From positions 464,213 to 528,212 of the forward strand of contig OZ246398.1 of the NCBI GenBank assembly GCA_965230995.1: a DNA stretch of 64,000 nt, read 5' to 3'. The notes under the pieces were generated by a model. It was given only the letters and a program-made list of their open reading frames with translations, did not search any database and was not told the DNA's origin. Positions within the stretch are counted from its first letter, which is position 1, and every line of letters begins with the position of its first letter. Source of the stretch: an uncultured Candidatus Saccharibacteria bacterium. GTDB taxonomy: Bacteria; Patescibacteriota; Minisyncoccia; Phycocordibacterales; G965230995. This document shows, one piece after another, positions 572 to 54,628 of this stretch. The position numbers and the translations under genes are program-made.

Positions 572-1588
572 ATGGAATACAGCATAAAGGAATTACTAAA
601 TGACGAAAGGGAATATCCGCTTGAAATATTTGGCGGTTCGTCTTTTACGCAATCAAATATTTATGCAAATTGGCAGACAAAAAAGGGGAGATGGGTCGGC
701 AGATATTTGGTAGAGAAGAATAACAAAACTATAGCTTTCTTTCAGGTAATCGAATATCCGCTTTTTTTTGGTAAAAAATGTTTATACATACCTTATGGCC
801 CAGTTTCGATAGATACTTCGAGAGATTTTTTTGTATTTTTAAAAAATTCTTTGCTCAAGATTTCAAAAGAAAGAGATGCTATTTTTGCTCGAATAGATTT
901 TGATCCAAAAATTGAATCTGATTTGTTAAATAACATTTTTACAAAATCACCGGCTTGCACATACAGCTCTTCTTTCTTCCAGCCAAGATCAGAATGGGTT
1001 CTAGATATATCAAAAAGTGAAGAAGAGATACTTTTACAGATGGAAAAAGACACCAGATATTCTGTAAAGACATCACAAAAAAGAGGAGCCGTGGGTAGTA
1101 TAATCACTGAAGATTTCGGTAAATATTTTGATGATTTTTATAACCTTCTAGAAACGACAGCAAAGAGGAATGGTTTTGGTATTCACGACAAAAAATATTA
1201 CAAGAATATTTTTGAAAGTTTAAGAAAAGAAAATGCGTTTTTATCGATTGTCTCGGGTGAAAATATTTTAGTTATAGATGTGTTTATAATTTTCGGCAAA
1301 ACAGTCCATTATGTTTTTGGATCGAGTAGTAATGAAGAAAGAAACAAATTGCCTTCATATATGGCGATTTGGAATGCTATTTTATATGTAAAAGAAAAAG
1401 GAATAGAAAATATTAATTTTGGCGGATATTCTGCCGAAGCAAAAAAAGAAAAATGGAGTGGTTTTTCTATTTTTAAAAAAGGTTGGGGTGGGGAAGAATT
1501 AAAACATTCTGATTTTTTTGATATTGTATCAAATCGTTTTTGGTATTATCTGTATTCTTTTATTAAAAAGATAAAGACCTATATATAG
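572..1588 (+). CDS. FemAB-family peptidoglycan interpeptide-bridge aminoacyltransferase (FemX-like)
   Basis: 338 aa; size and sequence pattern resemble the FemAB family. Family-level recognition by eye only. Confidence 0.45.
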   Translation: MEYSIKELLNDEREYPLEIFGGSSFTQSNIYANWQTKKGRWVGRYLVEKNNKTIAFFQVIEYPLFFGKKCLYIPYGPVSIDTSRDFFVFLKNSLLKISKERDAIFARIDFDPKIESDLLNNIFTKSPACTYSSSFFQPRSEWVLDISKSEEEILLQMEKDTRYSVKTSQKRGAVGSIITEDFGKYFDDFYNLLETTAKRNGFGIHDKKYYKNIFESLRKENAFLSIVSGENILVIDVFIIFGKTVHYVFGSSSNEERNKLPSYMAIWNAILYVKEKGIENINFGGYSAEAKKEKWSGFSIFKKGWGGEELKHSDFFDIVSNRFWYYLYSFIKKIKTYI

Positions 1589-1649
1589 TTTTAACCGCCC
1601 GGCCATATGCACATCGTGCACTGGGTTCGGGCGGTTGCGTCGGCTATCC

Positions 1650-2153
1650 TTAGTAGCCGAGGGATTGTTTTTGTCTGTTGATGATCATCCTCACGGTTTG
1701 AGGTGAGGGGGTGAGCATGCGGTCCCCGCACACCTGAAGGTGCGCCTCCTTAATCAGGTGATTGAGTGTGAATGCCAGATCTGCAATGTCGGTCGCAGGG
1801 GGGATCACCACCTGTGGTGGAACGTGACCGGGTTTTTCTGGCGGGCTCTTAACCTTTGACCAGAGCCCGCACGTGACGGTACTCAGGACGTTGTGTCGTA
1901 CCAACCGGCGTTGGTATCTCTGCATCAGACGCCTGTGATAACACAAGTCGTTTTCAGCCTTGAGACGCATTTCTTCGTCTCGAATGGCCTGACTGATGAC
2001 CCCGTCCCAGCTGACCGGGATCCACTCTCCGTGCAGGTAAGATGGAAGGAGCACTCTCGAGAGAGCCTCTGTCATCATTGGGCACGTGAAGGGAGATCCT
2101 GCGATCGTGTACGGCACGATCGCAATTTCTCGTGGTTTCGGCAAATCTCTCAC
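1650..2153 (-). CDS. Hypothetical protein encoded in a GC-rich islet (GTG start, RBS aacGGAGG upstream)
   Basis: 167-aa ORF inside a visibly GC-rich ~620-bp insert (about 1590-2215) between the FemAB gene and the tRNA pair. No recognisable domain. Confidence 0.4.
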   Translation of the reverse strand: MRDLPKPREIAIVPYTIAGSPFTCPMMTEALSRVLLPSYLHGEWIPVSWDGVISQAIRDEEMRLKAENDLCYHRRLMQRYQRRLVRHNVLSTVTCGLWSKVKSPPEKPGHVPPQVVIPPATDIADLAFTLNHLIKEAHLQVCGDRMLTPSPQTVRMIINRQKQSLGY

Positions 2154-2329
2154 AAAAACCTCCGTTTGGCTTCAAGGTTCGGCTTCCGGTTCCGCAAAAA
2201 ATATAACCTAATATAGTAAAATAGTCAAATTTTTAATTCACACATACAATGAATTTTCTTGTTCTTGAAGAATTAATATTTTTTAAACAAAAAACCTCAA
2301 AGCATTACTTTGAAGCTTAATGTTTGTAG

Positions 2330-23845: not shown

Positions 23846-23985
23846 AAATTCAATGTTTATAACTAAAAATGAAAATGGTCAAGTGTCTATGTATTTAATC
23901 TAGCTTTGCATTAAAAAAATTTTTTGGCAAGTTTATATAAAAACACAGGGTGCGCGGGAACTTCGTTCCCGCGCACCCGCACCAC

Positions 23986-24591
23986 CTAGCCCACCAGCGC
24001 AGATCGCCTCGAAAGCACTCGCTTCACGAACTCGAGATCTCCCTTGATTGTTGGGTACATCGTTGATACCGAGGCTGGGGCAATCAATGTTCCTTGCCCG
24101 TTTTCTTCGACGGGAACGAGATCCCCCACGGTCTTTGCTGTGATGGGTACGAGCCCGCACATTCGGGAGACTTGACTCAGTTCACGATGTTCAACCCTCA
24201 TTGCGTATCTGAGGTGCAGAGCTCCGTGTGGTATTTTTCCTCTTTTGAAGCCATGCTTGGAGAGCCTCTCGGCGACAGATTGTCCAAAGAGCCCTGCCGC
24301 TTCTCTGACAAGCCTGTCTCTGATCGGGTCCTTGTCGTCGTCAGCACAAAGTTTCGCATAGTTGATATCGCAGACGAGCGAAAGTTCGAGGACACCCGGA
24401 AGGTCTTTGGCTATGTAGCCACTTTTCCTCTTTCGGGAATCGAACTCGGGTCTCCTTCTCAAAAACACAATTCTTCCTTGATTCTTGTGTATGGTGAACA
24501 ACAAGAGCCTGATCGTGCCTGTCATTTTTGCCTCACTTGGTTGGTGTAGGGTGGTTGAAAGAACTTCTCCGTAATTAAACACCACTTTCAT
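23986..24591 (-). CDS. Hypothetical protein in a GC-rich islet inserted between dprA and topA
   Basis: ~200-aa ORF. The ORF-track start is a TTG at 24603; the first ATG is at ~24591. Compositionally atypical; no recognisable domain. Confidence 0.4.
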   Translation of the reverse strand: MKVVFNYGEVLSTTLHQPSEAKMTGTIRLLLFTIHKNQGRIVFLRRRPEFDSRKRKSGYIAKDLPGVLELSLVCDINYAKLCADDDKDPIRDRLVREAAGLFGQSVAERLSKHGFKRGKIPHGALHLRYAMRVEHRELSQVSRMCGLVPITAKTVGDLVPVEENGQGTLIAPASVSTMYPTIKGDLEFVKRVLSRRSALVG

Positions 24592-24599
24592 TTTCAAAG

Positions 24600-25460
24600 T
24601 CAAATTTTTTGTATCAAACCTATTCTTTCTTCTATTGCTCCGTTTATTTCAAGTGACATCAAAATTGCTTGTGTTTCGCTTGCTCCGAATGGTGATAATC
24701 TCAAAATTTCATTTCTTGAAATAGGTGTAGAAATCATAGAAAGTATTTTTTCTTCTTCAGCAGTTAGATTAAATTTAATTTTTATTTGTTCTTTATTTTC
24801 TGAAACAAGACCGAGCGCCTCTAAAATATCTTCCGATTTTGTTATTGGTGTAGCTCCGAGCCGAATCAACATATGTGGTCCAGAAGAATTCGGTGAAAAA
24901 ATTGAACCAGGCACGGTATAAACATCTCTGTTGTAATCTGTTGCTAATCTAGACGTGATTAATGTTCCAGATTTTTCTTCGGCCTCGATCACTAAAACTG
25001 CATTAGAGAAACCTGCCATAATTCTGTTTCTTTGTGGAAATGTCCATGGCAGGGCTTTTTGCATTGGTTCAAATTCAGAAAAAAGCCCTCCTCCATTTTT
25101 TATTATTTCATCTACAAGACCTCTGTTATTTCTCGGGTAAATAACTTTTGGATCGAGCCCTGACCCTGGAATTGCAATAGTTTGCAAACCAGATTGTATT
25201 GCACTTTTATGTGCGATTGTGTCTATACCGATAGCCAAGCCAGAAACTATTGTAATAGGGAATCCACGCAAACCAGAAATTAGTTTTTCGCAAACTTCTT
25301 TTCCATACGGGCTGTATTTTCTCGAACCGACAACACATAACCGCTTGTTTTCCAATATTGGTTTTGTTCCGACATAATAGAGGTTCTTAGGAGGTTCGGT
25401 TATTTCGAATAACTCTTCTGGTAATTCTTCTTTTGTAATGTTTTCAATTCGATATGACAT
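24600..25460 (-). CDS. dprA: DNA processing protein DprA (Smf)
   Basis: DprA Rossmann-like core (…VVGSRKYSPYG…IVSGLAIGID…). The track start (25526) overlaps the next gene's 5' end; the internal Met MSYRIENI is the more plausible start. Confidence 0.7.
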   Translation of the reverse strand: MSYRIENITKEELPEELFEITEPPKNLYYVGTKPILENKRLCVVGSRKYSPYGKEVCEKLISGLRGFPITIVSGLAIGIDTIAHKSAIQSGLQTIAIPGSGLDPKVIYPRNNRGLVDEIIKNGGGLFSEFEPMQKALPWTFPQRNRIMAGFSNAVLVIEAEEKSGTLITSRLATDYNRDVYTVPGSIFSPNSSGPHMLIRLGATPITKSEDILEALGLVSENKEQIKIKFNLTAEEEKILSMISTPISRNEILRLSPFGASETQAILMSLEINGAIEERIGLIQKI

Positions 25461-30381: not shown

Positions 30382-30920
30382 GTAATTGACAATGGAATAA
30401 AAATAAATAATATCTTATTTCAGTTCCTTGACGGTGTGACGTCGCAAACAAGCCTGTACTGGCAAATGCTGGGTTGAGACAAAGGTCAGAGGGTGGCATT
30501 GGGGAATCTCGTTCGCCCCATTTCCAAACAAGGCCAGAGTATCAGCTCAAGTCAAAACCCGACTCCACACCACCCGTGCCCCGGCGGTTCACCAAGCCTC
30601 TCCCCTCGACCACGCGGTCCACTTGGGAGAGGGGAGGTGAACCGCCTTTTTTGTTACTTGACAAATAAAATGGTTGTGTTATCATTAACAACAAAGAGAG
30701 TTGCGTTGTTGATTTTGGTCGCTTGACCAAGCAATGCAACTGCTCTCCAAGTTCCTACCACGGAGCACTGGCAATGAGTGATCCCAGCAAGATGAAGATG
30801 ATCGAAACCAGTTCGGATTATACGACCACCTTCGTCGGCGCCATCCTGACCCCCGCCTGATCGGCTCCGGCATCCCGCCGGGCCCGGTCAACCAAACAGG
30901 TTCTAACCAAGGAGAGTATC

Positions 30921-30992
30921 ATGAACTGGTACCGCCATGGTTTCCGAAGTAGATTGCCCCCAATTCGCGTGCCAAGAGGCAGGCTGCGATAG
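30921..30992 (+). CDS. Possible 23-aa Arg-rich micro-ORF (MNWYRHGFRSRLPPIRVPRGRLR) with strong RBS inside a GC-rich non-coding islet
   Basis: aaGGAGag 7 nt upstream of ATG. Too short for the ORF track. Confidence 0.2.
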   Translation: MNWYRHGFRSRLPPIRVPRGRLR

Positions 30993-31062
30993 GGGGCATT
31001 ACTATTTGTGCCAAATCACATAAACCCAAGCGGGTTTTATTTTTTTATGTTATAAATCAATC

Positions 31063-34058: not shown

Positions 34059-34216
34059 GCAACTATATTTTCTTAGCGACTCTGTCGCTTTAGAAAATAA
34101 TTTATCCCGAACGGACGTGAGGGAGGCGTCCCGAGATACTGCGAGGGGCAACTCGCGAAGCGACAAACATCCGAGCCACAGGATGTTGTCTTGTTATTTA
34201 ATGCTAAGATATAACC

Positions 34217-34471
34217 ATGTATCACGTCTACATACTCAAATGCAAAGACGGCACGCTATACACAGGAATCACTAATGATTTAGACAGAAGATTTTCTCAA
34301 CACAAAAACGGAAAGGGTGGACACTACACCAGCTCAAAAAGAGTATCAGAAATTGTATATACAGAAGAGTACCCCGACAGATCTTCGGCATCAAAAAGGG
34401 AAGCTGAAATCAAAAAATGGCGACGAGAAAAGAAACTAGACCTCATAAAATCAAACAAGCAAAAAAATTAA
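34217..34471 (+). CDS. Second small GIY-YIG nuclease-family protein
   Basis: YHVYILKCKDGTLYTGITNDLDRRFSQH motif; 84 aa. Confidence 0.75.
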   Translation: MYHVYILKCKDGTLYTGITNDLDRRFSQHKNGKGGHYTSSKRVSEIVYTEEYPDRSSASKREAEIKKWRREKKLDLIKSNKQKN

Positions 34472-35455: not shown

Positions 35456-35803
35456 ATGAAAAAAATCGATGATCTAACGAAAAGAATTATATCATTCCGA
35501 GACGCTAGGGATTGGAAACAATTTCATAATCCTAAAGACGTTGCTCTTTCGTTGGTGTTAGAAGCAACCGAGGTCATGGAACATTTTCAGTGGAAGAATA
35601 AGGAGGTGATGGATAAATATATAGTAACAAACAAAACTGATATTGGTGAAGAATTGGCAGATGTTTTGTACTGGATATTGCTCATGAGTCATGATCTCAA
35701 TATAGACGTGTTAGACGCACTAGAGAAAAAGATTAAAGTCAACGAAGGTAAATATCCGGTTGAAAAGGCAAAAGGTAAATATACTAAATACAACAAATTG
35801 TAA
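35456..35803 (+). CDS. MazG-like all-alpha NTP pyrophosphohydrolase
   Basis: EATEVMEHF and EELADVLYWIL (EExxE/D metal-binding motifs); 115 aa. Its stop codon lies 1 nt before the next gene's ATG. Confidence 0.7.
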   Translation: MKKIDDLTKRIISFRDARDWKQFHNPKDVALSLVLEATEVMEHFQWKNKEVMDKYIVTNKTDIGEELADVLYWILLMSHDLNIDVLDALEKKIKVNEGKYPVEKAKGKYTKYNKL

Positions 35804-35804
35804 T

Positions 35805-37850
35805 ATGTCTAATATAGTTACCTTTAAATATAATAAGAATAATTTTGACAAAATTAAGGATTATCATTTTGGAAAAAATTGGCCCGTGGTTTATGTCCTC
35901 GAAAACAAGAAAGAGGTTTATATCGGCCAGACAATAAATGCCTATTATAGAAGTAAACAACATTATGAAAATCCAGAGAGAAGAAAGCTAAGTGAGATTC
36001 ATATTATAACAGATGAGGAGTTTAATGTTTCTGCGACATTGGATATTGAGTCATGGCTCATTCAGTATATTTCCGCAGACGGTAAATATTTATTACAGAA
36101 TGGTAATGGAGGTCTAAGAAATCATAATTATTATGATAGGGTAAAATATGAGACTAAGTTCGAAATCACTTGGAATAAATTGCAGGAAAAGGGTATTGTG
36201 CATAACTCACTACATGACTTGAAGAATAGTGATTTATTTAAATACTCGCCATATAAATCTCTTACAGAAGATCAGTATATAATTTCAAGAGAAATTTTCT
36301 CGGATATTGTAAGTAGCCAGAACAACACAATTATTGTTAATGGAGGTGCTGGTATAGGTAAGACAATACTGGCTACTTATCTGCTTAAGTTTCTAAAGGA
36401 GCAAAAGGAAACAAGCCATCTTTCTATGGCCATTATTGTTCCAATGACACAGTTGCGCCAGTCAATTAAGAAGGTGTTTAAGAACATAAAAGGCTTATCA
36501 CCTGGTATGGTAATAAGCCCAAGTCAGGTAATTGGTGGTAAATATGATTTGGTCATTATAGATGAAGCGCATCGACTCCATCGTCCTTTAAATATTTCAA
36601 ATTTAGGCTCACATTACAAAAACAATGATAAATTAAGATTGTCGAAAAAAGAAGGAACTGAGTTGGATTGGATATTGAAGGAAACAAAAAAGCAAATATT
36701 TTTTTATGATGAAAAACAAACAGTGGGTCCATCTGGGGTTAGGAGTGAAGAATTCAAAAAAATAAATGCTAAAAATTTATTTCTTACAGGTCAAATGCGT
36801 ATTGAAGCTGGTGATGCCTACATTAAATTAATTGATGACTTTTTTAATCTTAGAAAAACAAGAAACAATAGTCTCGGAGAATATGAATTTGAGATTTATG
36901 ATGACATACGAAAATTATTTGATGACATAAAAGAAAGAAATACGAAACACGGTCTCTCTCGTGTTGTTGCTGGCTATGCTTGGCCATGGCATACAAAGCC
37001 CAATAGAAAAAAATCTAAAGATTACGACATAGAGATTGATGGATATAAGGCAGTTTGGAACTCAACAACTAAGGATTGGATGAATTCAAAAAATGCTATA
37101 AATGAAGTTGGGTGTATACATACTGTGCAGGGATATGGACTAAATTATGCTGGGGTTATAATTGGCCCGGAGTTTGGATATGATCCAAAAAGTAAAACTT
37201 TCTTCGTAGATAAGAAAAAATATTTTGACAGAAACGGTAGGGCTGGTGTTCATGATATATTAGAGCTAGAACAATATATTAAAAATATTTATAGAATTTT
37301 ATTAACACGTGGTATAAAGGGAACATATGTTTACGCTGTCGATAAAAATTTGAGAGATTACTTAAAAGATCAATTTAAGTTTAAAAATACTAAAGAAATT
37401 ATCAAAAGCAACAATATTAATAAAGAAAAAATACTTTCTCCATACGCAAATAACTATATTAATGTACCGTTAGTAGGATCTGCGCCTTGCGGAAATCCAT
37501 TATTGGGTGAAGAAAATATAGAAGATTATATTAAGGTAAAAAAAGAAAAAATAAAAATTGGATACAAATATTTTATTGTTAGGGCAGTTGGTGATTCCAT
37601 GAATATAGCTGGAATCAATGATCAAGATTTGGTTCTTTGTCGGTATTCGGAAAAGGGAGAAACTGGTGATAAGGTAATTGCGTTGTTGGGTGGTGAGAAT
37701 GTTACTATAAAGTTTTACGATAAAAGTGGAGATCGAAGAATACTACTACCAAAAAGCAGTAACCCAATACATAAACCAATTGTCCCAGAAGAGGGAGATA
37801 TTGTCCAGGGTGTAGTGCAGGAAGTTTTACCTCCTACTAATTTAAATTAA
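35805..37850 (+). CDS. Three-domain fusion: N-terminal GIY-YIG nuclease, DUF2075 (SF1-helicase-like P-loop ATPase), C-terminal LexA/UmuD-type S24 autopeptidase
   Basis: GIY-YIG: VVYVLENKKEVYIGQT…R…QHYE. DUF2075: Walker A IIVNGGAGIGKT, Walker B DLVIIDEAHRL, tail motif IHTVQGYGLNYAGVIIG. S24: cleavage loop VPLVGSAPC^GNPLLGEENIED, Ser motif VGDSM, Lys in VTIKFY, LLP…KPI tail. ATG at 35805 follows the MazG stop (the track's alternative start is 35760). Confidence 0.8.
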   Translation: MSNIVTFKYNKNNFDKIKDYHFGKNWPVVYVLENKKEVYIGQTINAYYRSKQHYENPERRKLSEIHIITDEEFNVSATLDIESWLIQYISADGKYLLQNGNGGLRNHNYYDRVKYETKFEITWNKLQEKGIVHNSLHDLKNSDLFKYSPYKSLTEDQYIISREIFSDIVSSQNNTIIVNGGAGIGKTILATYLLKFLKEQKETSHLSMAIIVPMTQLRQSIKKVFKNIKGLSPGMVISPSQVIGGKYDLVIIDEAHRLHRPLNISNLGSHYKNNDKLRLSKKEGTELDWILKETKKQIFFYDEKQTVGPSGVRSEEFKKINAKNLFLTGQMRIEAGDAYIKLIDDFFNLRKTRNNSLGEYEFEIYDDIRKLFDDIKERNTKHGLSRVVAGYAWPWHTKPNRKKSKDYDIEIDGYKAVWNSTTKDWMNSKNAINEVGCIHTVQGYGLNYAGVIIGPEFGYDPKSKTFFVDKKKYFDRNGRAGVHDILELEQYIKNIYRILLTRGIKGTYVYAVDKNLRDYLKDQFKFKNTKEIIKSNNINKEKILSPYANNYINVPLVGSAPCGNPLLGEENIEDYIKVKKEKIKIGYKYFIVRAVGDSMNIAGINDQDLVLCRYSEKGETGDKVIALLGGENVTIKFYDKSGDRRILLPKSSNPIHKPIVPEEGDIVQGVVQEVLPPTNLN

Positions 37851-37865
37851 AAAAAGTTAGCCCCT

Positions 37866-37890
37866 GCGGGTGCAGGGGCATGGACAACGA
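37866..37890 (+). terminator. Stem-loop agcccctgc-ggg-tgcaggggc after the fusion gene
   Basis: GC-rich hairpin immediately 3' of the stop codon; no clean U-tract. Confidence 0.4.
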
Positions 37891-37973
37891 ACGGGGCAAA
37901 ACGAACGAACGGGCGCCAGTTTGGTGGTTCCTAGCTCACCAAGCGAAGGAGTAAACGACAGGCCTGTTTACAC

Positions 37974-38567
37974 CTAGACCGGAGTGGAAGTGAACCACTT
38001 CCAGTGGAGAATGTGCATCGGGCTCACATTCTGATCTGGCAGGTCGGTGCGCGGCGTAGTGAGAACCATTTTGCGGTAATCATCCCAATACGCACGCTCC
38101 ATCTCCAGATAGGTGTTTCGGCATGCACCGGGGTTCTTGTCTATCTCGGCCCTAAGTGAGGACACGAGATCATCCAAGGTTTCGTGTACAGCGGGGTCTG
38201 CGGAGAATTCGTCCTGAGGTATGGTTGGCGTCTGTTGGTTTTGCCAACCCTTACTTACCACATCACGACGAGCGGTTTGCAACAATGCAAAGCAACTCTC
38301 CGTTGTGATTGGTGATGCGTTGTCGTCAGTCCAACACGAGGTAGCCCCGATGCTGTTCGGCATGTTACGCCTTCCGTTGAACCTGACGTCGAGAAGGCAA
38401 GCCCTGAGCTGAATGAGCTGGTGAATGTAGCAAGGACGTGCCGGAACAAGACCGTCTGCGGTCTTCTTCGAGAGAATCTTTACGCAAAGTCTCTCCAGTG
38501 GTCCTTGCATTACTTCCCGGACCCCATCCATGGGTCGTGAGTCACGGTGGTCGATGAGATTGCTCAT
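37974..38567 (-). CDS. Hypothetical protein, GC-rich islet gene 1 (RBS aaGGAGGac upstream)
   Basis: 197-aa ORF, atypical composition, own promoter-like motif at 38609-38633. Confidence 0.45.
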   Translation of the reverse strand: MSNLIDHRDSRPMDGVREVMQGPLERLCVKILSKKTADGLVPARPCYIHQLIQLRACLLDVRFNGRRNMPNSIGATSCWTDDNASPITTESCFALLQTARRDVVSKGWQNQQTPTIPQDEFSADPAVHETLDDLVSSLRAEIDKNPGACRNTYLEMERAYWDDYRKMVLTTPRTDLPDQNVSPMHILHWKWFTSTPV

Positions 38568-38608
38568 ATAGTCCTCCTTCGCAAGTTGTGGTTTCTCGGT
38601 TGTGTGTT

Positions 38609-38633
38609 CTATGACAAAACAGTTCTATTTCAA
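38609..38633 (-). promoter_or_regulatory. Conserved promoter/operator-like motif TTGAAATAGAACTGTTTTGTCATAG (minus strand) upstream of 37974..38567
   Basis: Near-identical to the motif at 39356-39380. Contains an AGAAC-N-GTTYT inverted repeat. Confidence 0.45.
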
Positions 38634-38733
38634 CACTATCACCATTCATATTTCAAGACAATATATATAAAAAGCGCCCCTCTACGTGAGAGGGGCGGGT
38701 GACACGGGGACGAGAACGGTGGTGCGGTGAAAA

Positions 38734-39330
38734 CTACTTCAGCTCAATCAGGTCGTGATCCACCATGTGCAACGCTGAGACCATGCGGACCCTCAGGTCA
38801 GCCCTGACCGGCAGGAGCTTTTCCTTGATCTTGTTCCAGTAGTTGAGTTCAGCCATGAGTGCTTGGAATTGATCGGGAGTAAGTTCCAGATCGTCCGTTG
38901 TGGCAATGAGAACGCCCACAATGGCATCAATAACCAAGTGGACAATCTGGTTTGCCCAGAACTTCTCCTTCTTGATCACGATGTGAGGAATCGGCGCCGA
39001 CGCGTCATGGGGGTGGCTGGCCAAGTGCTTTTGATGAGCGTGATCAGTGTGGATCAGGATACCCCGGCCACTCGAAGGGAAAAGAGCAAAAGAAGAACTT
39101 GGCGGTTCAAGCTCAGCATTCTTATATAGCTCGTGACCCCTGGCCTGCATCATGTTGTAGAGGACACAGAGGTGAACAGGGAAACGAGGACCTCTGCTTA
39201 CCCTGGTCATATTGTCCAACAAAAGATTGCAGACCCAGTCAAATTGATCCTCCAAGACATCAATCACGAGGGGTAGTGGTTCCAGTTCAAGTCGACGCAA
39301 CACCTCGAGGTCTGTTGTAGGTCCAGACAT
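38734..39330 (-). CDS. Hypothetical protein, GC-rich islet gene 2
   Basis: 198-aa ORF, atypical composition, own copy of the promoter-like motif. Confidence 0.45.
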   Translation of the reverse strand: MSGPTTDLEVLRRLELEPLPLVIDVLEDQFDWVCNLLLDNMTRVSRGPRFPVHLCVLYNMMQARGHELYKNAELEPPSSSFALFPSSGRGILIHTDHAHQKHLASHPHDASAPIPHIVIKKEKFWANQIVHLVIDAIVGVLIATTDDLELTPDQFQALMAELNYWNKIKEKLLPVRADLRVRMVSALHMVDHDLIELK

Positions 39331-39355
39331 GGCTTTCTCCCGTTATGGTTTAGCA

Positions 39356-39380
39356 CTGTGACAGAACGGTTCTATATCAA
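39356..39380 (-). promoter_or_regulatory. Conserved promoter/operator-like motif TTGATATAGAACCGTTCTGTCACAG (minus strand) upstream of 38734..39330
   Basis: Second copy of the 25-nt motif. Perfect AGAAC-c-GTTCT palindrome. Confidence 0.45.
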
Positions 39381-39503
39381 CATTAGCACTGTTACAAAAT
39401 CATCTAAATATTGACGAAATGCTGTGGTGATTTATAATAAAGGGATGATAACACGAAAATAGCTTAACATTATAAATTAAGTACCGCGCAGCGGTTTTCG
39501 TGT

Positions 39504-40937
39504 ATGCAAAAGCAAAAAAACGCACAATCTATTATTTTATCGTGTACTCATCTATCAAAAAAATTCGAAGATCTTGAAGTCCTAAAGGATGTTTCTTTTA
39601 CTGTCCACAAAGGAGAAAAAATTGGTTTGGTTGGTCCAAATGGTTCTGGCAAAAGTACATTGCTAAAAATAATTGCTGGTGAAATTAAAAATGATTCCGG
39701 TTCTGTCACTTTTGGTCAAAATATTAAAATAGAATATTTTCCTCAAGTCAGATTATCGCAGGATGAACAAAGCGGTGGTGAAATAGCAAAGAAAATACTT
39801 GCACCTATAATGGCGTCTTCTGCTGATCTGTTTCTGTTAGATGAACCAACAAATGATTTGGACGAGGATGGTCTGTCTATGGTTGAAAAATTTGTCACGG
39901 GAAGTGATAAAAGTTTTTTGATTATTTCTCACGATAGAATGTTTCTCGACAAAACAGTTTCGAAGATTATTGAAATCGACGAGACGACGAGAACTAATTT
40001 TATCTACGACGGAGGATATTCAGATTATGCTATAGAAAAATTAAACAAAATTGAAAGACAATGGAAAAATTATTCAGATAAAGCAGAAAAGCAAGAAAAG
40101 CTTCAGAGTACGACAAAACAAAAAGACGATTGGGTAAGGGAAATTGAAAAAAAGAGAAAAAATATCAAAAAACTGGCAATTCACGAAAAGGAAAAGCCAA
40201 ATGCTGCCGATTTGCGAGACGCCGAAGCGAGAGCCTCGAGACGTGCTGTAGTAATGAAGAGAAAGCTGGAAAGGTTTGTCGAAAAAACAAAAGACATAGA
40301 AAAGCCAAAAAGATTGTTGCCATTACATATTGATTTTGAAACAACACGAGGAAGTACGATTGTGTTTGAATTGAAAGACGTCGTAAAGAAAATTGGTGAT
40401 AAAGAAATTGGTCCGTTTAATTTTGTAATCCAATACGGGCAACGGCTGCATATTACTGGTCCAAACGGTTCGGGAAAAAGTACATTGATTAAAATGCTAC
40501 TTTCAGAAATAAAAAACGATTCTGGAAATATTAAAATAGGAAATGATGTAACTGTTGGCTACATACCTCAGGAAAGATCAAAAAATTTAATTGGCAAAAA
40601 CCCAGTCGAGCATTTTTTGAATTCGGTTTCTGGAATACCAGAGACAGATGCGAGAAAAATTCTCAATCGTTTTAGGATTAACGGCGAAGATGTAAAAAAA
40701 GACATATCACAGCTAAGCCCTGGTGAATATTCACGTTTGCTCATTGCGGAACTTGTTGCAAAAAAACCGAATTGCATAATTTTGGACGAGCCGAGCAACC
40801 ATTTGGATCTCGAAGTCCTAGAAGAGCTCGAGAGTGGTCTTGTGGAATATAAAGGAACGCTAATTGTGGTTAGTCACGACAGATATATGACAGAAAAATT
40901 AAACCTTGAAAAAAGTATCTATATAGAAAAGTGTTGA
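39504..40937 (+). CDS. ABC-F family ATPase (two nucleotide-binding domains, no TM)
   Basis: Two Walker A motifs GPNGSGKSTL, two signature-like motifs, short inter-domain linker. Confidence 0.7.
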   Translation: MQKQKNAQSIILSCTHLSKKFEDLEVLKDVSFTVHKGEKIGLVGPNGSGKSTLLKIIAGEIKNDSGSVTFGQNIKIEYFPQVRLSQDEQSGGEIAKKILAPIMASSADLFLLDEPTNDLDEDGLSMVEKFVTGSDKSFLIISHDRMFLDKTVSKIIEIDETTRTNFIYDGGYSDYAIEKLNKIERQWKNYSDKAEKQEKLQSTTKQKDDWVREIEKKRKNIKKLAIHEKEKPNAADLRDAEARASRRAVVMKRKLERFVEKTKDIEKPKRLLPLHIDFETTRGSTIVFELKDVVKKIGDKEIGPFNFVIQYGQRLHITGPNGSGKSTLIKMLLSEIKNDSGNIKIGNDVTVGYIPQERSKNLIGKNPVEHFLNSVSGIPETDARKILNRFRINGEDVKKDISQLSPGEYSRLLIAELVAKKPNCIILDEPSNHLDLEVLEELESGLVEYKGTLIVVSHDRYMTEKLNLEKSIYIEKC

Positions 40938-53656: not shown

Positions 53657-53945
53657 ATATCGTCCAAAAAACAATATAGATTTTGATTTTAAATTAATTT
53701 AAATAACCTTACGTTAATCTAAATTAGTAAAAGTTCGTTTTAAAAATTATTTTACAAAAAAAGTCATTTTTGATTGGAATTTTTAGATACTCAAAAAATA
53801 TCATTTCCGATATATCCTCTTAACCACAAGGATATATCGAAAAACCCTTATTTAAAGCCATTTGTGTACTTGACAAAAAAGATATATCGGTTATGGTTTT
53901 GCCAGAACCAGATGTTTGAGAACCACCATAAACCGGGAGATTCCC

Positions 53946-54461
53946 ATGAGTGCCCAAGACTGGAAACAGGCCGTGAACGAAGAGCGCGAAAGAAAAGAGC
54001 AGGAGAGAAAGGATCTTGCGGAAGCAGAAGCAAGGATGAAAGTTCGCGTGGCTGAGGTGTGGACTGTCCTGCATGAGTTCGAAAAAAGTGACGCTGCGAA
54101 GGATGCTTCTGAGTTTCTCCGTATGCTCTACAAGGAGGGCTACGTCATCGGAGGGTATGTGAGTTATTCCATCAGTAGGGTTAGAAGCCACAAGAGTGTA
54201 CCGTTGCAGCTCGGACGATACGCTAAGGTGCAATTTGATTTTGTGGATTCTGTGTGGCTTTTTTTATCTTATCCTCCTGATCCTTTTTTTAGTTTTGCCT
54301 TCACGTATCGTGATGATAACGATGACGGCAGAGCTCTCGAGAAACTCCTGAGTGAGGATCCGGAACTTGATGGCAAAAAGATTCTGAAACTCTTCACTGA
54401 CTTTCTTGACGAGGAGGTCAAGAAGTGGAAACTGAGGCAGGCGGAGAAGTCAGGGAAGTAG
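53946..54461 (+). CDS. Hypothetical protein in a GC-rich islet (start at MSAQDWK)
   Basis: The 5'UTR/RBS accataaaccgggagattccATG is almost identical to that of 38734..39330. Promoter-like TTGACA-16-TATGGT with gatatatc half-site repeats upstream. Confidence 0.45.
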   Translation: MSAQDWKQAVNEERERKEQERKDLAEAEARMKVRVAEVWTVLHEFEKSDAAKDASEFLRMLYKEGYVIGGYVSYSISRVRSHKSVPLQLGRYAKVQFDFVDSVWLFLSYPPDPFFSFAFTYRDDNDDGRALEKLLSEDPELDGKKILKLFTDFLDEEVKKWKLRQAEKSGK

Positions 54462-54628
54462 CGGACGACTCGACGCCCGTAAAACCACCCGAGGGACATT
54501 GGTCCAGGGTGGTTTTTCTTTTGTATTATGTTCCTAAAGGCAAAAGCGAAGCTTTTGCCTTTCTAGATGTTAAAGAAATATTAACTCGATACCTTTTAAT
54601 TAATTAGTCTTTGTAGTAAAATACTGGA

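Follow-up and report, generated by a model that had tools for sequence, protein, structure and literature searches.

A phage moron is an extra, autonomous transcription unit set exactly between two genes already in place; it brings a promoter and a factor-independent terminator of its own and deviates in GC content, as in the HK97 gene 15 element (Cumby, Davidson & Maxwell 2012, PMC3594210). The 64,000-nucleotide stretch analysed here, hereafter the window, comes from contig OZ246398.1 (assembly GCA_965230995.1) of an uncultured Candidatus Saccharibacteria bacterium and contains a GC-rich insert with two tandem open reading frames (ORFs), labelled ORF1 and ORF2, each preceded by a 25-nt motif. 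The insert resembles a moron in arrangement: it lies precisely between two resident genes, each of its units has its own factor-independent terminator (Table 1), and its GC content differs from that of its neighbours (52% versus 31–35%; z = +8.8 for GC at third codon positions, GC3), with promoters that are predicted only. Morons, however, are defined in phage and prophage genomes, whereas the neighbours of the insert are chromosomal, no phage or viral relatives of ORF1 or ORF2 were found in 50,697 phage records or IMG/VR, and the insert comprises a tandem pair of paralogous units that share a conserved element at the predicted start site. Because this phage context is lacking, the insert is not a moron.

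Horizontally acquired ORFan islets are likewise short, lineage-specific, atypical in composition and codon usage, and without detectable function. Unlike in these islets, the promoter and terminator modules of the insert are conserved with the gene across two host genomes, which suggests that the expression unit moves, or is maintained, in its entirety. Polymorphic-toxin loci contain tandem arrays of diverged immunity-gene paralogs, and the insert shares with them small proteins, tandem and strongly diverged paralogs and a patchy distribution, but it contains no toxin gene or match to a known Imm family, and every copy forms a monocistronic unit closed by a separate terminator. Integron cassettes, normally promoterless and ending in an attC site near intI, are comparable units of approximately 0.6–0.8 kb, with one ORF each, the same orientation, mostly ORFan content and foreign composition; the units here differ in carrying predicted promoters and ordinary terminators, and no search aimed at attC or IntI was made. 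A single short piece of acquired DNA with two unassigned genes is in itself a common kind of thing.

Composition and anatomy of the two-gene insert

The explanation we favour, with moderate confidence, is that the insert is a horizontally acquired islet in which a self-contained gene cassette stands in two tandem copies from an ancient duplication, the repeated motif being likely an operator. Starting from the left, the insert is bordered by the stop codon (37848–37850) of a gene encoding a GIY-YIG/SLFN-helicase/S24 fusion protein, hereafter the S24-fusion gene, and on the right by the −35 hexamer (39411–39416) of the promoter of an ABC-F gene; it exactly fills the intergenic space between the two. 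The stretch 37851–39408 has a GC content of 52%, against 35% for the genome and 36.6% on average for the 64-kb window. Between 37860 and 39350 the value is 52.2%, with 31–35% in both flanks, in line with a preliminary description of this DNA that had called the stretch visibly GC-rich. GC3 is 0.61 in both ORFs, as opposed to 0.271 ± 0.039 with a maximum of 0.347 in the 43 host ORFs of the window that served as reference (z of about +8.8). Codon preferences are reversed relative to the host: lysine is encoded by AAG in 94% of cases in the insert and by AAA in 80% of cases in the host, and AGA accounts for 8% of arginine codons in the insert versus 58% in the host. Because of this GC3 of 0.61 against 0.27 ± 0.04, the insert is clearly foreign and horizontally acquired in origin, and the separately acquired fragment that the preliminary description had offered as one of two possibilities is the one that stands.

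The two proteins are homologous to each other and to a single further protein, P0003, of metagenomic origin. ORF1 matches ORF2 at E = 1e-4, with a protein identity of approximately 24%, and matches P0003 in BLASTP at E = 3e-8 across 175 aa. P0003, a homolog of ORF2 with 192 aa, emerged when 1.84 billion representative proteins were searched exhaustively with phmmer (43% identical, E = 2e-34). The three-way alignment has 25 invariant columns, including C34, C55, Q62, R64, R89, H131, D147, E161 and W165 in ORF2 numbering. Two word-indexed searches of 5.8 billion clusters returned the query proteins alone, and a profile search with the family returned the three known members only, making ORF1, ORF2 and P0003 the whole detectable family among approximately 15 billion proteins. 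The alignments indicate that ORF1 and ORF2 are diverged paralogs from a tandem duplication, not a two-part system, and that, as judged by these searches, the three proteins are a new, very rare family of unassigned role. Since the paralogs are only approximately 24% identical and yet both GC-rich, their duplication is older than the arrival in the AT-rich genome, and we therefore infer that the two-gene block entered as one piece.

Promoters were assigned from a three-way alignment of the regions upstream of ORF1, ORF2 and the P0003 gene, the last located on a contig labelled L001. A predicted extended −10 element (TGnTArTGT) occurs in the same register in all three family members, and the promoter layout on L001 equals that of the insert units (−35/17 nt/TGATAATGT). 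Across bacteria, the −35 is less conserved in promoters that have an extended −10, and the pairing of a weak −35 with such a −10 is an established promoter layout (PMC12641261). The predicted −35 of ORF2 sits 2 bp from that of ABC-F, so that the two promoters are back-to-back and divergent. Other candidates were rejected: taking TTGAWA as the −35 hexamer leaves unit 2 without an acceptable −10 at 16–18 nt, and the would-be −10 of an extracytoplasmic function (ECF)-type GAAC promoter is not conserved between the units.

At the 3′ ends, the ORF2 terminator has a 9-bp stem with 7 GC pairs and separates ORF2 from ORF1. The T-run of the ORF1 terminator extends into the stop codon of the S24-fusion gene, which is convergent with ORF1, and the 3′ stretch of ORF1 contains a GTAAAC-N9-GTTTAC hairpin directly after its stop codon. 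Because a strong terminator follows each gene, each is predicted to be a separate transcription unit. A ‘decayed terminator’ upstream of unit 2, suggested by alignment A3, was discarded, since the sequence there is simply the ABC-F promoter in reverse complement.

Table 1 Features of the insert, in window coordinates, with the matching promoter on contig L001
Feature	Position	Strand	Sequence and remarks
Whole insert	37851..39408	minus	1.56 kb; boundaries from sequence and promoter/terminator scan
ORF2	38734..39330	minus	198 aa; upstream paralog; from ORF list
ORF1	37974..38567	minus	197 aa; downstream paralog; from ORF list
ORF2 promoter, predicted	39408..39380	minus	−35 TTTAGA (39408..39403), 17 nt, −10 TGC-TAATGT (39388..39380)
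ORF1 promoter, predicted	38661..38633	minus	−35 TTGTCT (38661..38656), 17 nt, −10 TGA-TAGTGT (38641..38633)
L001 family-gene promoter, predicted	L001 212-240		−35 TTGAAA, 17 nt, extended −10 TGA-TAATGT
Motif copy 1	38609..38633	minus	TTGAAATAGAACTGTTTTGTCATAG; upstream of ORF1; palindrome imperfect
Motif copy 2	39356..39380	minus	TTGATATAGAACCGTTCTGTCACAG; upstream of ORF2; same register relative to −10
ORF2 intrinsic terminator	38670..38697	minus	CGCCCCTCTCACGTAGAGGGGCG then CTTTTT; hairpin 38697..38675; from terminator scan
ORF1 intrinsic terminator	37850..37887	minus	TTGTCCAT-GCCCCTGCACCCGCAGGGGC then TAACTTTTTTT; hairpin 37879..37860; from terminator scan
ORF1 3′ untranslated stretch	37880..37973	minus	60% GC

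The cassette on L001 shows which parts of the unit are shared between hosts. L001 is a 3.3-kb JGI contig, and the identical sequence was independently assembled in an ENA sample (L002); the contig has a GC content of approximately 33% and the P0003 gene of approximately 50%. A terminator module, TTGTCCA..CCCCT..GGGG..T-run, is common to its cassette and the ORF1 terminator (z = 6.1); the upstream flank of the cassette is similar to the junction between the ORF2 terminator and the ORF1 promoter (z = 6.5), and the ORF2 terminator is homologous to a hairpin upstream of the cassette. With both promoter and terminator modules homologous, the promoter–gene–terminator unit thus persists as a block across hosts. 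The family member on L001 is single, beside an unrelated GC-rich orphan gene, and the proteins therefore need not have each other. The cassette is bracketed by a direct repeat of approximately 25 nt, CTTTTTTGAAAATTGCAT(A)GAC (L001 196–222 and 904–930, z = 6.9), each copy of which is preceded by a terminator-like hairpin. This repeat may be a site of recombination or a scar left when a tandem array collapsed, and tandem arrays of the unit have probably existed more than once.

The conserved motif at the predicted start site

That a nearly identical 25-nt element precedes each ORF was correctly seen in the preliminary description. A search of the 64 kb with the motif, TTGAWATAGAACYGTTYTGTCAYAG, at up to three mismatches returned only the two exact matches listed in Table 1, against zero expected from a shuffled window. 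The copy upstream of ORF2 holds a perfect AGAAC-C-GTTCT palindrome and a CTGT-C-ACAG palindrome, whereas the copy upstream of ORF1 reads AGAACTGTTTT at the former site, so the AGAAC-N-GTTCT inverted repeat originally ascribed to both copies is intact in only one. The motif lies 41 nt from the ATG of ORF1 and 25 nt from that of ORF2, and would span the last base of the predicted −10 to approximately +19 of the transcript, with minus-strand starts predicted near 38626 and 39373. Similarity between the upstream regions (alignment z = 10.6) runs approximately 9 nt further than the 25 nt, to approximately 34 nt, with the extended −10 included.

Conservation between the two units is uneven. The block from the extended −10 to +19 is identical at 28 of 34 positions (82%), as opposed to 17 of 33 (52%) for the −35 hexamer and spacer and approximately 41% for the codon-aligned coding DNA. 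Duplication of the entire unit accounts for the homology of the control regions, and a duplicated motif in itself does not imply a regulator. The best-kept block, however, lies where basal promoter function constrains the sequence least, which argues for an added function, and the motif is most likely a functional cis element, probably an operator overlapping the predicted start site. The duplicated control regions of the preliminary description thus turn out to be truly homologous and far better conserved than the coding DNA, which fits a shared cis-regulatory site. Control by one DNA-binding protein, as suggested there, and a regulon are hypothetical, and no further copy was found in the window.

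Beyond the window, a 22-nt version of the motif has 4 matches in 185,579 species genomes (the source genome not among them), all in unrelated phyla, a number that fits the approximately one chance match estimated for the information content of the pattern; a scan of IMG/VR gave 0 matches. Gram-positive LexA binds an SOS operator of the form GAAC-N4-GTTC. This operator was rejected as a candidate for the motif, in which the half-sites are spaced by 1 bp (AGAAC-C-GTTCT) and not by 4. A conserved hairpin in the leader RNA was also rejected, as the palindrome would leave a loop of 1 nt and no common local structure was found; the fold z-scores of the two units, −4.2 and −1.5, were uninformative.

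Several points weigh against the cassette-and-operator interpretation. The palindrome is perfect in one copy only, and the L001 promoter keeps the extended −10 without any palindrome. On its own the palindrome is near chance in the window (5 observed versus 2.4 expected), the other sites being inside genes. No candidate DNA-binding protein was found in or beside the insert, and gene conversion over a short tract shared by the neighbouring copies could make the motif look selected when it is not. Further copies of the motif were sought in 64 kb, out of at least 743 kb for the genome. Both the register of the promoters and their start sites are predicted: a consensus scan did not call these promoters, whose −10 hexamers match the consensus at 3 of 6 positions. 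With three family members, neither the AlphaFold2 model described below, at a mean confidence of 78, nor the set of residues taken as conserved is robust.

The strongest alternative is that the motif is a mere relic of the duplicated promoter, or a recent gene-conversion patch, and that both genes are constitutive. We regard this as a real if somewhat unlikely possibility. It fits a motif that abuts the −10 hexamer within an upstream region that is homologous by descent as a whole, and has no further copy in the window. Degeneration of the palindrome in copy 1 and its loss from view in the L001 promoter also fit, and no regulator gene was found. It does not fit the position of the best block (28/34) downstream of the −10, where basal promoter constraint is least, next to a −35 and spacer region with 52% identity and coding DNA with approximately 41%, and the flanks are too diverged for easy gene conversion.

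If the insert is indeed a pair of cassettes with an operator, a foreign block with two already diverged copies would have entered an intergenic space of an AT-rich genome. Each cassette would consist of a sigma-70-type promoter (weak −35, extended −10 TGnTArTGT), a short leader, a strong Shine–Dalgarno sequence, a gene of approximately 197 aa and a GC-rich terminator. The start-site block would have been kept at 82% identity while the proteins drifted to approximately 24%, and an operator over the start site would place both genes under the same control, by a binding factor that is apparently not encoded within the insert. The paralogs can function one by one and are not two-component partners.

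Protein role and the neighbouring genes

Both ORFs had been described as orphans, which is accurate in that none of Pfam, NCBIfam and PADLOC has a match for either, and inaccurate in that P0003 is a homolog and the ORFs are homologous to each other. The profile and structure searches proposed at that stage gave no Pfam, PADLOC, PHROG, PDB or Foldseek match of significance. PHROGs returned weak matches only (best E of 0.03), a PDB profile search nothing significant, and P0003 is also without a Pfam match. A tblastn search of 50,697 phage records with both proteins was without match, and a profile scan of IMG/VR for the family found none. An AlphaFold2 model of ORF2, built from the three-sequence alignment, has a mean predicted local distance difference test score (pLDDT) of 77.8 and a predicted template modelling score (pTM) of 0.77. 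The predicted fold is a helical bundle with five long helices and a small sheet, and Foldseek found no close counterpart in the PDB or in viral models (BFVD), with a best E of approximately 0.6 and template modelling (TM) scores of approximately 0.2–0.3; the family may have a new fold. Neither an N-terminal signal nor a membrane segment was seen when the sequences were read by eye, and the predicted isoelectric point is approximately 6 for both proteins, which look cytoplasmic and, in the model, mostly helical. Our best guess at their role is a fast-evolving accessory function, perhaps conflict- or immunity-related, which would rest on the predicted helical bundle with the conserved Cys34, Cys55, His131 and Glu161 (ORF2 numbering).

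A more specific form of this guess, in which the genes would be immunity or anti-defence paralogs arranged in tandem and diverging fast, concerns function and is compatible with the cassette explanation. We hold it to be doubtful, although small, helical proteins that appear cytoplasmic by sequence and model, tandem diverged copies, an extremely patchy distribution, a foreign composition and an adjoining defence-like gene would all be in keeping with it, and immunity genes often occur in tandem paralog arrays. Set against these features are the lack of a cognate toxin or secretion system in the window, the lack of similarity to any known immunity, Acr or defence family, and a promoter and terminator for each gene, which is atypical of immunity arrays.

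A functional pair, whether toxin–antitoxin, toxin–immunity or regulator–effector, within one defence island with the S24-fusion gene is very improbable and already largely refuted. The preliminary description had raised both parts of this idea, the pair and its place as cargo of an S24-fusion island. The insert does adjoin a defence-like gene (PADLOC Nhi 1e-12, SLFN group-3 helicase and Peptidase_S24 domains) and is convergent with it, as that description had stated, to the point that the ORF1 terminator overlaps its stop codon; the control motif is common to both ORFs. But the two proteins are paralogs and not different partners, a strong terminator lies between ORF2 and ORF1, and the family member on L001 stands alone. 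The fusion gene has the composition of the host (32% GC versus 52% for the insert), and no homolog of it was found beside the family member on L001 or on L007 and L008, two metagenomic contigs with relatives of the ABC-F gene. The S24 gene and the ORF1/ORF2 pair are tied by adjacency alone. A type II toxin–antitoxin or toxin–immunity pair was rejected specifically, given the paralogy, the intrinsic terminator and second predicted promoter between the genes, and the L001 homolog without a family partner; no significant similarity to a toxin, antitoxin, immunity or defence family was found in Pfam, NCBIfam, PADLOC, PHROGs, the PDB profile search or Foldseek searches of the PDB and BFVD.

The S24-fusion gene (35760–37850, plus strand) encodes a protein of 696 aa with a weak GIY-YIG match, a helicase of SLFN group-3/DUF2075 type (E = 3.5e-66) and a C-terminal Peptidase_S24 domain (E = 2.7e-17); its best PADLOC match is Nhi, and no recognised DNA-binding domain was found. 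The listed TTG start overlaps a MazG-like gene, and translation probably begins instead at the ATG of codon 16. On the plus strand the gene lacks its own T-run terminator, so that transcripts reading through would run antisense to ORF1 and ORF2. The ABC-F gene on the other side (39504..40937, plus strand) has a near-consensus promoter, TTGACG-16-TATAAT, at 39411–39438, followed by a leader of approximately 60 nt with a 14-bp hairpin (39451–39464/39490–39503) that ends at the start codon. This hairpin may be an attenuator or serve translational control, as in some ABC-F genes.

The surroundings are those of a chromosome, including dnaX, tRNA-Gln and genes for PNP-like, MazG-like, ABC-F and DUF2231 proteins. 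No repeat of the tRNA-Gln end, of the att-like kind that would delimit an island, was found. The relatives of the ABC-F protein on L007 and L008 are 62% and 57% identical, and neither contig has the ORF1/ORF2 pair or, as said, an S24-fusion homolog. Directly upstream of ABC-F, L007 has an ordinary host-type gene of 176 aa that is not GC-rich, but gene order around the locus is rearranged in both contigs, and a clean empty site was not obtained. A separate gene of L007 (10568–11692, plus strand), with 50% GC in a background of approximately 34%, encodes an AIR-synthase-related protein (PF00586, PF02769) and is likely a further foreign acquisition, in this case with a known family.

The coding status of ORF1 and ORF2, listed as two tandem minus-strand ORFs of 197 and 198 aa in the ORF list and the preliminary description alike, decides against two readings that take them as accidental. 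GC content at codon positions 1, 2 and 3 is.56/.44/.61 in ORF1 and.60/.33/.61 in ORF2, a coding-like pattern (GC1>GC2<GC3), and Shine–Dalgarno sequences lie 5–6 nt before each ATG (AGGAGG at 38578..38573 for ORF1 and GGGAG at 39341..39337 for ORF2). Compared codon by codon, ORF2 and the P0003 gene differ at.39/.39/.56 of positions 1/2/3, and 38 of the 80 identical residues are encoded by different codons. The protein alignment scores 345 in frame and 194 or less in the other five frames. On the basis of this codon-position pattern, the Shine–Dalgarno sites and conservation at the protein level across genomes, the sequences indicate that both are real protein-coding genes.

That the GC-rich DNA instead represents structured non-coding RNAs, or a gene on the opposite strand as the preliminary description had considered, is refuted for practical purposes. 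GC-rich patches of AT-rich genomes are often RNA genes, and the unit-1 transcript folds better than its shuffles (z = −4.2, from 20 shuffles only), but unit 2 reaches only z = −1.5, Rfam 15 at gathering score matched only tRNAs across the window, and its best hit in 37700–39600 at E up to 10 has E = 0.79 and half of the gathering score, which leaves the insert without an Rfam match. The codon pattern and Shine–Dalgarno sites exist, conservation with L001 is at the protein level and specific to the frame, and the longest ORF on the opposite strand within the insert has 88 aa or fewer. An assembly or binning chimera, in which reads from a higher-GC organism were joined into the contig, would explain the abrupt shift of GC content at both borders but is very unlikely, as the borders match functional junctions (a terminator T-run on the host stop codon and −35 hexamers back-to-back with ABC-F), NCBI and Logan assemblies together have the proteins on 4 contigs of up to 742,714 bp, and a similar GC-rich cassette lies inside an independent low-GC contig that was assembled twice (JGI and ENA).

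Other GC-rich units and a wider class of cassettes

The 64 kb also contain at least 3 more GC-rich single-gene units with unrelated orphan ORFs, in addition to two GC-rich units that look non-coding. The unit at 1590–2230 (minus strand; 55% GC, GC3 of 0.64) encloses a 167-aa orphan ORF (1650..2153) with a GTG start, a promoter TTGACT-17-TATATT, a Shine–Dalgarno sequence GGAGG and a GC-rich hairpin past the stop codon; the ORF is unrelated to ORF1 and ORF2 and has no Pfam or PDB match or IMG/VR relative. A second unit, at 23945–24615 (minus strand, GC3 of 0.58), lies between topA and dprA and has a perfect terminator, GGTGCGCGGGAAC..GTTCCCGCGCACC with a T-run. Its ORF is listed as 23986..24603, but the start is probably the ATG at 24525, after GTGAGG, which gives 179 aa, and it is without a family, PDB or viral match. 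The third, at 53870–54520 (plus strand), is GC-enriched (GC3 of 0.54) and carries a 171-aa ORF (53946..54461) with no significant match, a promoter TTGACA-16-TATGGT, a Shine–Dalgarno sequence GGGAG and a terminator AAAACCACCC..GGGTGGTTTTT. IMG/VR scans for these three orphan cassettes found nothing.

Between ClpB-like and dusB-like genes, approximately 670 nt of GC-rich DNA (30385–31055, plus strand; up to 56%) has no credible long ORF but two promoter-plus-terminator units, with TTGACA at approximately 30388 and 30659 and terminators at approximately 30584–30655 and 31027–31050. The second unit has a Shine–Dalgarno sequence and an Arg-rich mini-ORF of 24 codons (MNWYRHGFRSRLPPIRVPRGRLR) at approximately 30921. 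These units, without an Rfam match at E up to 1, may be small RNAs or leader peptides. A shorter GC-rich stretch of approximately 150 nt (34062–34215, plus strand) lies immediately after tRNA-Gln, ahead of a small stand-alone GIY-YIG gene (34217..34471), and is also without an Rfam match at E up to 1.

Similar cassette-like units occur in the related contigs L001 and L008. On L001, a GC-enriched monocistronic orphan gene of 150 aa (1105–1557, minus strand) has its own promoter and terminator, as does a GC-enriched orphan of 193 aa on L008 (5239–5820, plus strand), located directly upstream of the ABC-F ortholog. Both genes have 45–50% GC within low-GC contigs. The L008 orphan thus shares the neighbourhood of the insert, with a sequence unrelated to ORF1 and ORF2.

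We tentatively raise a broader idea, to which we give limited credence: the pair would be one example of a class of insulated, self-contained cassettes that circulate among AT-rich, small-genome bacteria resembling the candidate phyla radiation (CPR) and land precisely in intergenic spaces. Such a cassette, as proposed, would have a promoter, an ORF of 150–200 aa and a terminator within 0.6–0.8 kb of approximately 50% GC, and by analogy the class may be a chromosomal counterpart of phage morons. The direct repeat (25 nt) around the L001 cassette hints at a recombination-based mechanism of mobility.

Globally, ORF1, ORF2 and P0003 form a new, extremely rare family with a fairly confident predicted fold that is unmatched in the PDB or viral structure sets. 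The insert offers a clear natural case of promoter duplication in which conservation around the predicted start site far exceeds that of the genes, and it provides a candidate operator for a bacterial group in which hardly any regulatory sites are known. Seen alongside the remaining GC-rich single-gene units, the insert suggests that a reduced, AT-rich genome often takes up foreign expression units in complete form, which bears on gene gain in symbiont-like bacteria.

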